The notes under the pieces were generated by a model that did no database searches, was not told the origin of the DNA, and saw only the letters and a program-made list of their open reading frames with translations. DNA of 64,000 nt from Eledone cirrhosa (Eukaryota). The translations under genes were made by a program, and so were the position numbers. The first letter of the stretch is position 1, and every line of letters begins with the position of its first letter. Shown here piece after piece: positions 36,291 through 51,294 of the stretch. The DNA is taken from the NCBI GenBank assembly GCA_964016885.1, contig OZ024742.1, forward strand, positions 126,976,001 to 127,040,000, read 5' to 3'.

Positions 36291-36532
36291 TGTATGTATG
36301 TATATATATATGTATGTATATATATATATATACATACATACATATATATATATACATACATATATATATACATACATATATATATATATACATACATATA
36401 TATATATACATACATATATATATATACATACATATATATATATACATACATATATATATACATACATATATATATATACATACATATATATATATACATA
36501 CATATATATATATACATATATATATATACATA

Positions 36533-36587
<55 letters not shown>

Positions 36588-36765
36588 ACATACATACATA
36601 TATATATATACATACATATATATATACATACATATATATATATACATACATATATATATACATACATATATATATACATACATATATATATACATACATA
36701 TATATATACATACATATATACATATATACATACATACATATATATATACATATATACATATATAC

Positions 36766-36799
<34 letters not shown>

Positions 36800-36805
36800 A
36801 CATAC

Positions 36806-36842
<37 letters not shown>

Positions 36843-36883
36843 CATATAAATATATATACATATATATATATACATATATATAC

Positions 36884-36916
<33 letters not shown>

Positions 36917-37548
36917 AAGTAAGTAAGTAAAAAATTTAAAAAAAAATTTTTTTTTAAAAAGATTTTCTCATTTTACGTCTTTTATATTATTGTTCTGCAT
37001 CCTCCTGCATTGAACCACCTAGGTACTATGACATAACCTGTGTATTTGCTGGCATAGGCGTGCATCTGTGCGCTTATGTTAGTTGATATATTAAATTATC
37101 TATATTTATCTCCAAATCACTGATTTGTCGAGCAAACCTGCCAAAACCACTTCTAAAAAAATTTTTTTTGGGGGGGTGTTAGTAGGCGTCAGTCATCTTA
37201 CCATCCCATTCCTACTGACTAGTCTCTGTGTCACGTGATTGATTCTTTAGAATCGGCCATTTGACTAGAAACAGTGAGGATTTCAGTGCATGGAATTTAG
37301 TCCTCGCTAGCTATTCCATCTACCGAATTATTATTATTTTTACATGAGCCGCCAGTGTCCGCGCATTGCCTGGAGACTTAGCTGAGAATAGACTCCCTGA
37401 TGACGCAATGAATTCTCGACAGTTAGATTACGTAACTGTCTTTATCCCATTGCAGAAACTAATTAGTTGGAGTGAAAATTTAAGTAAGTAAAAAATTAAG
37501 AAAAAAAAATTTTTTTTTTAAAGATTTTCTTATTTTACGTCTTTTATA
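36917..37548 (+). mobile_element. Non-autonomous hammerhead-bearing element with terminal direct repeats (retrozyme/PLE pLTR-like)
   Basis: ~65-bp direct repeat 'aagtaagtaaaaaa..gattttct..ttttacgtcttttata' at 36921-36986 and 37482-37548; hammerhead just before the 3' repeat; flanked by TA tracts. Confidence 0.8.
37392..37473 (+). ncRNA. Type I hammerhead ribozyme with extended stem II
   Basis: Stem I actcc/ggagt; CTGATGA 37397-37403; stem II gcaatg/cattgc enclosing hairpin gacagtta/taactgtc; GAAAC-TAATTA-GTT with palindrome aactaattagtt; predicted cut after 37468. Confidence 0.82.
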
Positions 37549-37554
37549 TACATA

Positions 37555-37604
<50 letters not shown>

Positions 37605-37605
37605 C

Positions 37606-37734
<129 letters not shown>

Positions 37735-38017
37735 CATATGTATATATATATACATATACATATATATATATATATACATATATATATACATATATATATA
37801 TACATATATATATACATATATATATATACATACATATATATATATATATACATACATATATATATACATACATATATATATATATACATATATATATATA
37901 CATATATATATATACATATATATATACATATATATATATACATACATATATATATATATATATACATATATACATACATATATATATACATACATATATA
38001 TATACATATATATATAT

Positions 38018-38060
38018 ACGGTGCTGACGATAGCTAATAAGCTTGAAACTAGTACATCGT
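38018..38060 (+). ncRNA. Minimal type I hammerhead ribozyme
   Basis: Stem I acggtg/catcgt; CTGACGA; stem II agct/agct with aata loop; GAAAC-TA-GTA (palindrome actagt); predicted cut after 38054. Confidence 0.8.
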
Positions 38061-38334
38061 TCCTGTGTCAGTGTTGAACAAAAAGGTGACGTGGTTGCCT
38101 AAACACCGTACGGCGTAATTCAGGCTGTTTGCTTGTTTACAAAATGAAAACACACACACACATAGAGCAAACAACCAACCAGTAACATGTAAATAAACAA
38201 ATAAATAAACAAATATAAACACACACAGACAACCGGATGTAACACATGCGCAAACTAAACACACAAAACACACAAAAACAAGATGGCGTAGGACAGAACA
38301 AAGGAGAGGCACAAAAACAAAGAAAAGAATCCCA

Positions 38335-38377
38335 GTCACTGAAGAGGCCACAGAATGTGTGACGAAAGAACTTTGAC
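38335..38377 (+). ncRNA. Minimal type I hammerhead ribozyme
   Basis: gtca CTGAAGA g gccaca..tgtgac GAAA g-aa-c TT tgac; one stem II mismatch relative to the 39727 copy. Confidence 0.7.
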
Positions 38378-38529
38378 AATATATGAACAATCGTCTGGTT
38401 GTGGAACCAATCAACCAACCGGAAATTTATAAATTCCTAAATTTATAAATTTAATTTATAATAAATTGAAGTGAAAGCAACTGGTGCGTGTATTTCTTAT
38501 TGGCAACATGACCTTCCAAAATCATAACA

Positions 38530-38633
<104 letters not shown>

Positions 38634-39385: not shown

Positions 39386-39544
39386 GTATATATATACATA
39401 TATATATATATTGTTATACTTTGGGAGGGTCATGTTGCCAATAAGAAACACACGCACCAGTTGCTTTCAGTTCAATTTATTATAATAAATTTATAAATTT
39501 CTGGTTGGTTGGTTGGTTCCACAACCAGATAGTTGTTTATATAT

Positions 39545-39589
39545 AGTCATAGTTCTTTCGTCACACACTCTGTGACCTCTTCAGTGACT
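39545..39589 (-). ncRNA. Minimal type I hammerhead ribozyme
   Basis: Reverse complement of the 39727-39771 motif. Confidence 0.78.
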
Positions 39590-39726
39590 GGGAATTCCTT
39601 TCTTTGTTTCTGTGCCTCTCCTTTGTTCTGTCCTACGCCATTTTGTTTCTGTATCTGACACACACAGAAACAAAATGACGTAGGACAGAACAAAGGAGAG
39701 GCACAGAAACAAAGAAAGGAATCCCC

Positions 39727-39771
39727 AGTCACTGAAGAGGTCACAGAGTGTGTGACGAAAGAACTATGACT
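39727..39771 (+). ncRNA. Minimal type I hammerhead ribozyme
   Basis: agtca CTGAAGA g gtcaca-gagtg-tgtgac GAAA g-aa-c TA tgact; perfect stems I and II; CUA triplet. Confidence 0.78.
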
Positions 39772-40019
39772 ATATATAAGCAACTATCTGGTTGTGGAAC
39801 CAACCAACCAACCAGAAATTTATAAAATTATAAATTTATTATAAATTTATTATAATAAATTGAAGTGAAAGCAACTTGTGCGTGTGTTTCTTATTGGCAA
39901 CATGACCCTCCCAAAGTATAACAATATCGGTTTCAACACACGATTTCAGATAAAGAATCTTGCTAAACAAATTCAGAAACGATATATATATATACGTATA
40001 TATATACATATATATATAC

Positions 40020-45416: not shown

Positions 45417-48400
45417 CTTTCTTTATTTGCCACAGGGGCGTACAAAAATGGAACATTACTAGACGTGATGGCGGGGGTTTTACATAAAAATAACTTTAAC
45501 GTTAATAAATAACAATAAACTATATATAATAAAATAGCAATTGAAATCCCCAGTAGGGGGGAACGTTACTGCAGGGTTGTTTTACACCCCGTGGATAGAA
45601 CACCTACAGGTTTATATACAGAGAAGGCCCATTCACTCGAGCCATTTTTGCCACATTCACCCACCTTTCAGAGAATTTGCTGGGGTGTAGCACCTCTCTC
45701 TCCACTCTCACATTCCTTCTGAAGTGGTATTTAAAGAAGAGGATAAGTTGTTGTCCGGAGAGAAAGGTGTTTGCCCTCCTTTAACCTCGTCCACCATATT
45801 ACCTCTTTCGCCATAGCCACCAGACAGAGGAAAACCGCCTCTCCTTCGTTCTTAAATGAAGGCGGTGAGGTGATCCTCACGATGGACTCGGCTGACAATT
45901 GGATGCGTCCCACACGTGACAGCAGCTGTTCGACATAATTCCACAGGTCGATCAACCCTGGGCACTGAACAATTGCGTGCAGAACGGTTTCGATGTCCTG
46001 CTCGCATCTTGGACAGGCCCTTTTGGCAGGATCTCTGCCAGGGCGTCCGTGCCTGTAGATTTTGTCTCGAACTGGTAGAGCTCCTCGGTAGCACTGCCAG
46101 GCCAGAGACCTCTGGAAGTTATCCATAGGCCCTGGACGGAAAGTCCTCCCGAACAGACTTGTCAGTTTGTCCTCCTCGATGCCTCGAGTTTCCTCGAGAA
46201 TGCCGTCGCACCTATCCTCCACTAATCCCCTATAGAATGTCGAAGTGGAGTCTCCGATGATTGCCATTTCCGCTTGGTAGAGGGCTGTGAGCGCTTGTAG
46301 GCACTCGGGGTGCCAGGCCCCCATTTTAGGTCTTCGCTTGACCCAGGACTGCAGCTCTGTTAGTGAGACGAGTTGTGGAAGAGCTTGTCTCACAAACGAC
46401 AGCCACACCGGTCCACCGGTCAGGAATACCTGGAGATGGCGTAGCCTCAGCGCATCATCAGCCACGGCATGCCCAGCCCTCCGTTAGAAGGGTATTGACA
46501 GCAGATGGATCTCCTCACCAATGGAGCCTGTTTATTTCAGAGGAACTTGAAGAGTAGGCGTTCCATTTTGGTAAGGTATTCGCGGAGGCAAGGCACGACT
46601 GTCAAGCAGTAGTAGATGACGGACGCTATGTAAGTGATCGCCACCTCCGCTCGACCTTTCAAGGAGATTTTGCACTCAGCCCACTTCTGGGTGAGTGCAA
46701 ACACCTTCGCCGTGACCTCGTTCTAGTTCTTGTCCACTTGGAGGTCTGGACCGAACCAGATCCCGAGCAATTTCACCGGTCCTTCTGTCTAGCGTCCAAC
46801 GACACTGTCGGAGGGAATGGGTTTGCCTCTCCATGTGCCGAGTTGCAAACCGACAGACTTGTTTGGGTTGAGTCTTGCTCCTGTCAACGTTTCGTATTCC
46901 TGTAATAGGTTGCCGATTATCCTGATTTCCGTGGTTTTCGACACCATTACGGTTATGTCGGTTATGCCGACGCTGCTTCCTGCAGTCCTGGTTCGATCGG
47001 GATGCCCTGCAACAGCTCCAACTTCCGCAGTAACTGCTCGAGAGTCAGTAGATACAGAATGGAGGAGAGAGGGCATCCCTGACGGATGGAACGCATTATT
47101 TGGAATGGCTCTGATAGGTAGCCATTCACCTTGACTGCCGAGCAGATGCTGGTGTGCATGGCAGCGATCCAGCCTCTGAAGACGGGACCGAAGCTGGCCG
47201 CCTTGAGAACTGCTTCCAAGTATTGATGGTCGACCCTATCAAATGCCTTAGACTGATATAAATTGGTCAGAGCCCCACCGAAGCCAGGTTTACACCCTAC
47301 CCTCTCTATAATGTATCGCATGAGGTGGAGGTTGTCGTGTATGGACCTGGTCGGGATTGCACACGTTCAGGCTTCCCCTACCAGGTTCTTGACAACAAGC
47401 GCCAGCCTTGCTGCTAACATCTTGGCCAAAATCTTTAACTCTGTGTTGAGCAGAGTTATGGGCCAGAAATTGCTTATCTCATCCCCCTTGTTCTTATCTT
47501 TCCTGATCAGCGTTACTACGCCTCTGCCTACAGAACTGGGAATCCTCCCGTTCTGCTTCCAGTTGCAGTAGACCGCTTCGAGGACGCCAGAGAATAAGTC
47601 TGACATGCCTATGTAAAAACTCATAGGGTAGACCATCTAAACCGGGTGATTTGCGTTTCCTGCAGAGGCCTAGGGAATCTTCTATTACGCTCGCTGTGAT
47701 CGGCCTTTCGCAGCTCTCCGCATCCGTGTTCGAGAGTCGCGGTACGCCGTCGAGGTAGGAGCTGAAGTCCATCACCTCGCTCGATGTACCGCTTTGCCAG
47801 AACAGTTGTGCAAAATGCTGCTGGAAGGCCGTGCACATCTGCTTGGATTCAAGTAGAATGCGTCCATCTTTGTCTTGCAAAGACCGAATTGTGCATTTGA
47901 TGCCACTTTTCGCCTCTGCCACTCGGGCCCAGCTAACAGCTTTGGCTCCCTCGTTTCTTATAGCACGTGTTCTACTTCTGACAATACAACCTTCGTGTTT
48001 CACGTTGAAGAACTGGTCTAGTGCCATTCTCGCCGCTAGCACGTCAGCTATACTGCCATTCCTAAGTGCCTCTTCTATTTTAGCTACCAGTTCCTTTTCA
48101 GTTTTGTTTTTTTTCTAAAGCTACTTCCTTGCTAAATGCTATCGATTCTATTCTAATTGCTCTCTTGAGAGAGCTCCACCACCTGTTGTTGACTATTGCT
48201 TCGTCAACTGGCACTTAACTAAGGTGCTAATCCGTTTACTGTAGGCCTTACGCGCCGGGAGCGATATGTTTAACTTCCAGTATCCGGGTCCCTGTCTATG
48301 TGTTCTATCAAGGTTGACTACGCAGGTGACTAATTTGTGGTCTGAATAGGCAACCACGTGCATTTGTGGACAGCTTCATGTTTCCTTATCATTATGTCTA

Positions 48401-48990
48401 ATTAAAAATCTATCTAAATACGATCTAGAAGACCCAGTGCGGTTCATCCACGTCCTCAATGGTGCACTTGGGAAGTCTAGTCGATATCTATCATTGGAAT
48501 TGGCTGATGAGATTTTTGAGGCTATTACACCCCCCTCTATTATCACAAGCTCCTACATAGTCCCAACGTGCGTCTAAGATGCCATTCCAGTCCCCCGCTA
48601 ACACTACGGAGCGAGACGTTCCAGGGAATGGCTCCAGATGCTTGAAGAACTCTGGTCGCGATGTCCCAGTCGGGGCATATACGGCCACCAGTCTGAAAGC
48701 TCCACCTTCACTACCATGCACGTCCAGGACCACCAGGCTGCCCTCCAGGTCCAAGTGAATCGTCTGTATTTTGAGATCTAAGTTTTTTCGAAACAGAACA
48801 GCAACTCCCCCTCCACCTCCTGGCTGACAGAGAGATGTGTAGATCTCAAAATCATCTAACATGGGAGTTAGCTGCTGCTTGTCGTGAATCCTGGACTCGG
48901 TGATGGCTATTACATCTATACAATGGGACCTGAGATCATTTAAAAGCTGGCCCTGTTTCCAGGACATGCCCAGGCCACGTACATTCAAAC
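45417..48990 (-). mobile_element. Tx1/L1-clade LINE, 5'-truncated at the ORF2 start, with 10-bp TSD
   Basis: AGATAGATAT at 45407-45416 and 48991-49000; AATAAA near the 3' end on the minus strand. Confidence 0.92.
45604..48990 (-). pseudogene. Disrupted ORF2: APE endonuclease, reverse transcriptase, zf-RVT
   Basis: NVRGL/ITES/VAVYAP/AGDWN (endonuclease); KSPGLDGLP, PITLLNTELKILAK, KAFDRVDH, IRQGCPLS (RT); CPRC..ETVLHAIVQC (zinc finger); several stops and frameshifts. Confidence 0.93.
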
Positions 48991-49760
48991 AGATAGATAT
49001 GTGCGTGTGTGATATTTATTCTTTATCATTAATATTAATATAAAAATAATAATTACTTTTTAGAGAAGTGCCTCAAATTTCATATAGTTTAGGGCAAGTG
49101 AAAGTCCGGCCCTGGTTTGGGACCAGGTAAAGACTCACACAGAGATGACCGGAGAACATCTCTCAGTAAGTTGAATCTGACAGGATTTAGAGTCCAGCTG
49201 ACTTCGCTTGTGTCACTATAACATTCTCAGGACTGGCATCAACATTGTACAATCTTATTTCGTCTTCTGCGCTCTGTAGGCTCGACAATGGAAGAAGTGT
49301 GTATGTGATCGTTGTATTTGCGAGAAATAGTAGAAATGTATCCCTCACCTCATTGTCTTAAAAAATGAAGAAAGGACGCATTTGAGAGGTTAGTCATAAA
49401 ACTGTCTGAAGGCAAGATGGTCACGAATGGATCTTCGCTGATCATAGGTCTGTTCAATCGTGGCTAACCTTAGACTAAACAACTTACATTTGTAGCCTTT
49501 CCAAAATAGTGATCCGTTATGCAAAATAGCAGCCAAATATCCCTCAAATCAAACCCTTCCCTCTCAAGGGAGGCAGAACAGATTATATGATGTATCCCTC
49601 GGTATATTTCCATAGCTGAAATACATTTGATTACAGATCTACTGGACCAGGGATGAAATGAAACTGGAATTGAATGGAATGGATATCCACCAGTTTCGAC
49701 GATGGGTGTTCAAGTTGTTCGATCAACGAAACAGCCTACATTCTACAAACACGTGGACTC

Positions 49761-50002: not shown

Positions 50003-51240
50003 AAGGATGTCTTCTCTCGTCCTTGTTGTACTTATTGACTCTCGAGCCATTACTGCACAAACTGGAGACGTTGAAAGGGATCCCGCATGAACTAGGATGC
50101 AGAAGAACAGTGTCAGCTTATGCAGACGACATTACCGTAGTGGTGTCGAACGCCAAACACGTCGAGGCGATCGCACCACACTATGAGAATACGAGGTAGT
50201 GACAGGAGTAATGATCAACCAGGAAAAATCAGTAGGCCTGTAACTTGGCACCTGGAGAGGCAGGTAAATGCCGTCCAACAGCGTCGTCGGGCGCTGGACG
50301 GACGGACCGGTTAAATTGCTAGGAGTCTGGTTTGGTCCGGCCTTCCAGACGTACAAAAACGGGAAGGAGGTCACGAGCAATGTGGCTTCTCTCACCCAGA
50401 AATGGGCCGAGAGGAAGCTATCCCTGAAAGGTCGAGCGGAGGTGGCGAATGCGTACACCGCGTCCGTCATCTACTACTGCCTCACTGTTGTGCCTTGTCC
50501 TAAGCCTGCACCGGAGCGTTTGCTCTGTTTTGTGGAAGGGAGTGCTCCGATGGCCAGGTGGTTCATCTGCTGCCAACACCCGCTATGCGGAGGGCTGGGC
50601 ATGCCGTAGCTGATGATGCGCAGACACGCGCTCAGGCTACGACATCTCCACCTCTTCCTCGACAGTGATCAGGTGTGGCCGCCCTTTGCTAGACACATGT
50701 TTCCCCAGTTTGTCTCCTTGGCGGAGCTGCAGTCCTGGGTCAAGCGAAGACCGAGAAGAAATGCTTGGAGACTGGAATGTCTTTAGGCGCTTACAGCCCT
50801 CGACCAGTCGAGCAATACAATCGCTGGAAACTCCACCTTGGCGTTCATAGAGGATTAGTGGAGGGAAAAAGCAACGACGTCCTTGGAGAGACTCTAGGCG
50901 TCGACGAAAACCAACTAGCCAATCTCTTCGGGAGAACATTCGGGCCGGGGCCCATGGACAACATCCAGAAATCCCTGGCCTGGCTGTGCTACCGAGGAGC
51001 CTTGCCAGTTCGGGATAAACTTTACAGGCATGGAAGTGCCGTTAGTCGGGCCTGTCCAAGATGCGCGCAGGGCGATGAAACCGTCCTGCACGCACTCGTC
51101 CAGTGTCCGAACATTGCTGACTTGTGGGTTTATGCCGAACACCTGCTGTCGCGTGTAGAACGGATCCGGCTATCAGCTGAGTCCATCGTGAAAATTTCCC
51201 CGCCACCTTCCTTTAGCCGAGAAGGGCAGGAAGTTTTTTT
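50003..51240 (+). pseudogene. Tx1/L1-clade ORF2 fragment (RT to zf-RVT)
   Basis: AYADD at 50116, 'KWAERKLSLKGRAEVAN', 'CPRCAQGDETVLHALVQC'; homologous to and inverted relative to the 45.4-49.0 kb copy. Confidence 0.92.
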
Positions 51241-51294
51241 ATTTGATACACTCACCCCAAACGTCTATGTAAATAACCGTTAAGAGTATTAGGG

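Follow-up and report, generated by a model that had tools for sequence, protein, structure and literature searches.

The element at positions 36917–37548 is very probably a 5′-truncated copy of a young, non-coding hammerhead repeat (the ribozyme being predicted), which was copied into a TA microsatellite by the reverse transcriptase (RT)-endonuclease of a Penelope-like element (PLE) acting in trans. Unless a locus or contig is named, coordinates refer to the window, i.e. the whole 64,000-nucleotide stretch of DNA that was analysed. By every testable feature, the repeat, here called family A, is to be placed among the animal non-LTR retrozymes, with cleavage being predicted and circular RNA presumed for it. 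The features of the insert and its surroundings were as follows.

36293–36916, no strand: left TA/TACA microsatellite (target).
36917–37548, + strand: one-armed, 5′-truncated insertion of approximately 1.1 units of non-coding family A (non-LTR retrozyme).
36917–36987, + strand: 5′ partial repeat, starting 13 nt past the cut position of the preceding unit, an ordinary truncation point.
36984–36987 and 37102–37105, + strand: the ATAT of the short end and the ATAT of the long end of the family, respectively.
36988–37105, + strand: ‘tail’ of 118 nt separating the two fixed sites of the 3′ end, conserved among families A, B, and C.
37384–37417, + strand: possible tertiary pairing of 37384–37389 (upstream of stem I) with 37412–37417 (internal loop of stem II), read from the alignment.
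37392–37473, + strand: type I hammerhead motif of the PLE type, predicted cut after 37468.
37392–37396 with 37469–37473: hammerhead stem I.
37397–37403: hammerhead core CUGAUGA, followed by an extra C at 37404.
37405–37410 with 37448–37453: hammerhead stem II.
37418–37440, + strand: distal hairpin of stem II, a perfect 8 bp (37418–37425 with 37433–37440).
37454: extra A, followed by GAAA at 37455–37458.
37456–37467: hammerhead stem III, palindromic; GUU, with the predicted cut after 37468.
37481–37548, + strand: 3′ repeat, terminating at the fixed short 3′ end of the family; its final ATAT is common to the target tract (presumed priming site).
37545–38018, no strand: right TA/TACA microsatellite (target).

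When the two ends of the insert were aligned, the last 68 nt proved to be a repeat of the first 71 nt, with 37481–37548 matching 36920–36987 at 91% identity over 67–68 nt and a period of 561 nt. The results thus confirmed the terminal direct repeat with a period of approximately 561 nt that an earlier note on this DNA had described, and its further observations on the insert also held: no ORF of ≥150 aa lies inside it (those of that size touching it mostly run through the TA tracts), TA tracts flank it on both sides, and stem II carries an extra perfect 8-bp hairpin. The two repeat copies differ in the count of AAGT (three versus two), in the lengths of homopolymers, and at one position by a T/C change; the AAGT difference is ordinary for family A, where 20 of 68 adjacent units differ in this way. 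The ‘terminal direct repeat’ arises because reverse transcription starts at a fixed site approximately 80 nt downstream of the cut and ran slightly more than one unit.

The exact 23-mer directly after the cut was found in 2,063 genomic copies and its reversed control in none, showing that the hammerhead-bearing unit is not a product of chance. A DNA search of the 3.0-Gb genome, whose coding PLEs point to an animal host, gave 2,067 candidates, with full-length matches 95–100% identical among the 40 scored, and 1,170 exact short 3′ ends abut (TA)n genome-wide. The copies range from monomers up to satellites of 88+ units. Family A is a young, high-copy, dispersed, and independently amplified non-coding family of more than 1,000 copies; the independent amplification proposed in the earlier note, as against a single copy, is borne out by the counts of 23-mers and short ends. 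Sister family B gave 1,766 candidates in the DNA search, and sister family C came to light through a tail motif lying 3.8 kb from a GIY-YIG match; both have a unit of approximately 520 nt, and the shared-tail motif occurs 7,931 times in the genome. Among the sequencing runs listed for the unit, none was recorded as RNA; four contig sets of unrecorded type contain it in fragments. Related units, sister-family pieces included, were also observed in two other organisms (contig sets X5 and X6), and the family group appears, from these sequences, to be older than the host species or common to its relatives.

Insertion anatomy was analysed in an unbiased sample of 54 family A loci, taken from the first 100 matches on contig C1 with the 23-mer required in each. 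The results showed that the 3′ ends fall at two sites, approximately 80 and 200 nt past the cut and 118 nt apart, and that each fixed end is an ATAT merging into the target tract; the five other ATAT positions of the unit rarely or never serve as 3′ ends. Approximately half of the loci consist of two arms joined head to head, and every two-armed insertion (26/26) has a short end on one arm and a long end on the other (P = 1.5e-8 at even odds). The same pairing was found in 13/13 insertions of the first, similarity-ranked family A sample, in 16/16 of family B (a sample selected for a long end), and in 8/8 distinct insertions of family C, giving 63/63 for the three families together. Another 24 of the 54 loci were scored as one-armed and 4 as lacking a clean end; among the latter, L101, L145, and L156 are two-armed by eye and obey the rule, and L148 was cut by the fetched region. 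No head-to-head short–short pair was present among the first 100 short ends listed, which included three tail-to-tail pairs. At G000:C1:139513356-139513423 and C1:142713861-142713928, a single short TA tract separates two short 3′ ends in tail-to-tail orientation, the spacing being equal at the two loci.

As read from the sample, approximately 22 of the 26 head-to-head junctions join unlike positions, so that priming from both target strands fits better than fold-back on an antisense template (PMC3846280; here and below, a cited paper stands for those portions of it that were available). The length of the cDNA is variable, from less than 0.1 to approximately 4 units, and arms longer than one unit run on into another unit (68 adjacent-unit pairs). 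This layout, with two fixed 3′ ends, scattered 5′ ends, and head-to-head arms, is the anatomy of PLEs. A tail on one end only has been described in the available portions of PMC8557442 and PMC3846280; the qualitative asymmetry of the tails is already published, and the strict pairing of short and long ends with shared haplotypes did not appear in quantified form in the literature searched. Neither family A nor strict end pairing was reported in the literature searched, which lay outside subscription papers, Repbase, and bioRxiv supplements, where the family may be catalogued.

The earlier note had made hammerhead cleavage responsible for the 5′ end of the insert, and this, its key inference, mostly fails. 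The end lies 13 nt off the cut, and 2,019 of 2,063 sites read through the cut. The 85 5′ ends tallied in the unbiased sample, a few of which belong to sister-family fragments or to split arms, occur throughout the unit, with 13, 16, 13, 9, 13, and 21 ends in six 95-nt bins and two exactly at the cut. Genome-wide, the G three bases before the cut is missing in 44 of the 2,063 sites versus 15 in a control window seven bases upstream, and after dropping the rows that retained the two intervening bases, there were 25 5′ ends at the cut versus 6 in the control (P = 9e-4), an excess judged against this one control window. Thirty of these cut-site rows were fetched and comprised 19 true ends, 9 point changes, 1 deletion, and 1 duplication. 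Thus, 5′ ends are enriched approximately 4-fold at the cut, an effect that is real but small, as it concerns only about 1–2% of the ends. Some templates ended at the cut; the palindrome at this position could itself stall the enzyme and give rise to the excess.

For the copy in the window, it could still be argued that cleavage set the 5′ end and that 13 nt were then lost, given the genome-wide excess at the cut and the 4 of 85 sampled ends that lie ≤12 nt past it. However, approximately 2 of 85 ends are expected by chance in such an interval, many of more than 1,000 insertions will start this close, and the genome-wide excess sits at the cut itself. We consider this explanation improbable; the 13-nt offset is explained by chance.

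The hammerhead itself, which the earlier note had predicted with a cut after 37468, stands as a motif on account of the 23-mers past the cut and of covariation in stem II. In 12 hand-picked related rows from the three families, pairing held in every one of the 156 cells of the 13 pairs, and two pairs had changed on both sides, one of them being C-G, G-C, or A-U depending on the family and the other U-A or G-C; the shuffle control of this alignment is not a probability. The core was conserved in the 477 motifs that the fetched loci yielded, a number in which overlapping loci are counted more than once. The 82-nt motif of family A folded better than 200 of 200 shuffles (z −3.99), its minimum-energy fold having the core paired with stem III and the junction not formed; the monomer is accordingly predicted by the folding model to misfold. 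For families B and C, the predicted fold is the junction, but with weak z values (−1.3 and −0.6), and the distal hairpin of stem II is swapped for a different hairpin capped by a UUCG loop. An Rfam scan of the window gave no match at the gathering score, hammerhead included. The complementarity between 37384–37389 and 37412–37417 is kept in families A, B, and C with no compensatory change, and a tertiary pairing is thus possible as a prediction. All three families have kept the extra A before G12, which is atypical for a hammerhead. Four traits of the family A motif agree with the hammerheads of PLEs (PMC4209133): a base added before G10.1, pairing of G10.1 with C11.1, a long helix II, and a helix III that is palindromic.

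To compare haplotypes within and between insertions, we used 207 unit pieces from 80 loci. Units within one arm differed at 40 of 2,237 polymorphic cells (1.8%) and opposite arms at 27 of 1,598 (1.7%), whereas different loci differed at 35.6% of polymorphic cells. The low difference within insertions indicates that each insertion derives from one uniform unit and that its two arms share a source, either a single RNA or a single donor. In addition, the existence of many uniform haplotypes favours a unit-length intermediate, as in the published model (available text of PMC7229834). Together with the arms that enter another unit, the one-unit haplotypes agree with the earlier suggestion that the insert represents approximately 1.1 rounds of a tandem or circular template of approximately 560 nt. 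The template, favoured to be of unit length, may have been circular, and we lean slightly towards the view that the unit-length RNA was circularised. Only 2 of 114 locus-private variants occur in all units of their locus, and the haplotype test therefore does not part a circle from a young homogeneous tandem donor. A few loci (L104 and L118) contain units of different haplotypes within one arm, possibly reflecting a switch between two RNA templates.

It is also possible that mobilisation was driven by a PLE but that in every case the template was a linear transcript of several units, made from a homogeneous tandem copy, with no circle being formed. An intact internal cut site is present in 13 of the 19 arms that start at the cut, which suggests that some events, at least, drew on linear multimers cut only in part; the genome contains tandem copies as well as arrays of 24 to 88+ units; and in vitro, unprocessed RNA was the main PLE substrate and the ribozyme was dispensable (available portions of PMC11167929). 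On the other hand, the many haplotype classes, each uniform within its insertion, would need repeated unit-length bottlenecks, and those differences inside a locus that are seen again at other loci are single sites without linkage. Linked variants of the arrays were, moreover, not passed to dispersed copies, at least in the three long arrays examined (others may exist). We therefore regard an exclusively linear template as a genuine possibility, though one with well below an even chance.

These three arrays have 34, ≥88, and ≥24 units (L191–L193, L194–L199, and L202–L203, respectively). They carry periodic shared variants, indicating that they grew from single insertions by unequal exchange, and the largest shows a periodicity of approximately 7 units and a recurring unit with a 115-nt deletion. 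Of 14 tested variants common in the arrays (non-CpG-type or array-specific), 13 were found in 0–1 of 112–160 dispersed units and one in 3 dispersed units, and a fifteenth was a family-wide polymorphism. As their common variants are nearly absent from dispersed units, these arrays are not supported as donors of the dispersed copies. The recombination signatures of the long arrays would suit a satellite that spread at the DNA level, through extrachromosomal circles or a Helitron-like rolling circle, with the ribozyme-like motif as a passive component. However, the copies bear marks of retrotransposition, namely 3′ ends at fixed sites, 5′ truncation at random, arms joined head to head, and a target common to coding PLEs, and the long arrays themselves retain two-armed insertion ends where these are in view; spread at the DNA level is thus extremely improbable.

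A search for an autonomous PLE with the same pLTR, as the earlier note had suggested, found none among two intact Neptune-like families (N1 and N2), the best 30 GIY-YIG loci, or the family C loci. N1 (38,631 candidates, open frame of up to 1,257 aa) and N2 (6,458 candidates, many frames of 1,217 aa) share only low-complexity sequence with families A and B. They target the same TA tracts as family A and have tails of approximately 55–60 nt versus 118 nt. In a coding Neptune-like family with a 60-nt tail, anatomy and target are the same, and 4/4 two-armed copies with both ends clean pair a short with a long end. The label ‘Neptune’ for N1 and N2 rests on a C-x4-C-x2-C linker and TA targeting rather than on a tree. 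Pfam searches gave RVT_1 for N2 (E 3e-5, below the cut-off) and GIY-YIG for N1 (E 6e-5, above the cut-off); the whole N1 and N2 proteins had no Pfam match, and the matches in PDB were weak RT ones only. No partner was seen around the best 30 of 150 scored matches of the GIY-YIG family search (10,596 candidates), no linked ORF at 30 family C loci, and no PLE frame in ten non-TA 5′ flanks (protein search and reading by eye). The tail motif near the GIY-YIG match was considered as a link to the driver and rejected, being an unrelated neighbour. Since no cross-mobilisation between PLE types was found in a rotifer (PMC3846280, available portions), N1 and N2 are themselves doubtful as drivers of family A.

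Because the ribozyme, the tail, and the target of the insert are all of the PLE type, it might be taken for the ordinary pLTR of a 5′-truncated coding PLE, the case that the earlier note had named as refuting its proposal. One family B copy (L057:980-1790) is in fact fused to N1, the junction with its 3′ kilobase having a microhomology of 4 nt. In L057, however, the repeat is situated upstream of the coding piece, with a long end on either outer side, and since a later deletion explains the fusion as well as a template switch does, it was rejected as proof of a driver. Furthermore, arms longer than one unit enter another unit, and PLE-protein searches over the fetched loci of families A, B, and C revealed no reading frame leading into the unit. 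This explanation is largely refuted and in our view highly improbable.

Several other coding elements and fragments were observed. In the window, a 5′-truncated N1 pLTR at 38139–38530 (+) has its own minimal hammerhead (core 38339–38373) and ends at the N1 short end in the next TA tract, and a two-armed head-to-head N1 pLTR insertion at approximately 39410–39985 has its short end on the minus arm and its long end on the plus arm, with the same change at the cut triplet in both ribozyme motifs. LINE-type fragments in opposite orientations lie at 45731–46480 (−), 48494–49015 (−), and 50693–51280 (+), with zf-RVT found twice and an AP-type endonuclease domain. At L218–L224, N2 has near-identical 1,217-aa frames with an asparagine-rich low-complexity region and a short 3′ end just inside the ORF start; N2 is apparently very recent. 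A 344-aa frame at L257:1596-2627 (+) resembles the C-terminus of a further PLE with a different endonuclease signature and no Pfam match. Near family B copies, the flanks of L042 and L047 contain frames that by eye look like the restriction-like endonuclease end of a non-LTR element.

With regard to class, each unit of family A has one type I hammerhead and no coding capacity, and the family is dispersed and multi-copy, as are non-LTR retrozymes. It has no true LTR, the terminal repeat being a partial tandem of variable length, and the LTR retrozymes of plants, whose LTRs carry type III hammerheads, were rejected since the motif is of type I. Like the animal non-LTR retrozymes (PMC7229834; bioRxiv 10.64898/2026.07.22.740005), family A is a non-coding tandem unit with a GC content below 50%, occurs alongside PLEs in thousands of copies, which take the form of monomers, dimers, and long arrays, and has a palindromic helix III such as has been reported to require dimers. 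Its 560-nt unit is above the 170–400 nt of PMC7229834 and inside the 51–972 bp of bioRxiv 10.64898/2026.07.22.740005. Unlike these retrozymes, it has a PLE-type ribozyme with a long branched helix II and the extra A before G12. The earlier description as a retrozyme-like, undescribed element is thus correct as to its likeness to retrozymes, whereas ‘undescribed’ applies to the family and not to the class, which both sources describe. In the available portions of these sources, retrozyme copies are not mapped for PLE tails, for arms joined head to head, or for targeting of (TA)n.

Animal non-LTR retrozymes are now argued to be non-autonomous PLE derivatives (bioRxiv 10.64898/2026.07.22.740005, available text), and the copies of family A display what would be expected of these: two fixed internal 3′ ends, 5′ truncation, partial tandems, an inverted 5′ arm, and a microsatellite or AT-rich target common to the coding PLEs of the genome. 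EN+ PLEs of the Neptune type (PMC8557442; PMC3846280; PMC11167929) likewise show 5′ truncation, partial tandems, an inverted 5′ arm, a one-ended tail, a microsatellite bias, and a hammerhead upstream of the 3′ end; unlike them, family A has no ORF, and its tail is 118 nt as compared with 30–40 nt in print. Non-autonomous Chlamys elements, e.g. MRC1 (PMC8557442), are also non-coding PLE passengers with pLTR-like, multi-copy head-to-tail insertions but differ from family A in having 3′ ends similar to those of their autonomous partners, and a canonical hammerhead is absent from most Chlamys. The satellite-2 type repeats of newt and axolotl (as described in PMC7229834) share with family A a hammerhead-bearing tandem satellite and a weak palindromic helix III. 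Unlike satellite-2, family A consists mostly of dispersed short insertions, its arrays being secondary and retaining retro-insertion ends.

The following cycle would account for these results. Copies of two or more units would be transcribed, and the hammerhead is predicted to cut part of the RNA, for which the genome offers indirect support. Unit-length RNA would then probably, by a narrow preference, be circularised. A PLE protein would nick (TA)n and prime cDNA at one of the two fixed AUAU sites; the ends are observed, and priming is suggested by PLE biochemistry. The cDNA would run a variable length and stop anywhere, as the observed ends indicate, in this insert after 1.1 units, giving the apparent terminal repeat. 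Where both target strands are primed, one cDNA would start at the short and the other at the long site before the two are joined head to head, the pattern being observed and the coordination presumed. A few insertions would later expand to satellites by unequal exchange, consistent with the periodic shared variants. What speaks against a PLE acting in trans is that no coding PLE sharing sequence was found among the families and loci searched, together with the atypical extra A and the predicted misfolding of the family A monomer.

In vitro, two internal RT start sites define the PLE tail, both AT-rich strands are cut and extended, and a dimer is predicted (PMC11167929, available portions). We tentatively suggest, while considering it on the whole unlikely, that an asymmetric PLE dimer nicks both TA strands and uses a single circular retrozyme RNA for the priming of both cDNAs, with the short site invariably taken by one subunit and the long site by the other and both rolling round the circle, the driver having no sequence in common with its template.

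The class of retrozymes is already known, and family A itself is a catalogue entry. Its value is that of a natural data set on the enzyme by which animal retrozymes are moved: PLEs had earlier been implicated in this role through co-occurrence and pLTR similarity, whereas the copies of family A carry the PLE insertion signature itself. The strict pairing of short and long ends, the common haplotype of the arms, and the junctions, most of them non-palindromic, set limits to the ways in which PLEs could produce tandem and inverted inserts, and the family shows dispersed retro-insertions seeding satellites of 19 to >49 kb. If the asymmetric dimer were true, family A would provide genomic evidence for twin-primed rolling-circle retrotransposition, and the tails, tandems, and inverted arms of PLEs would be explained in one step.
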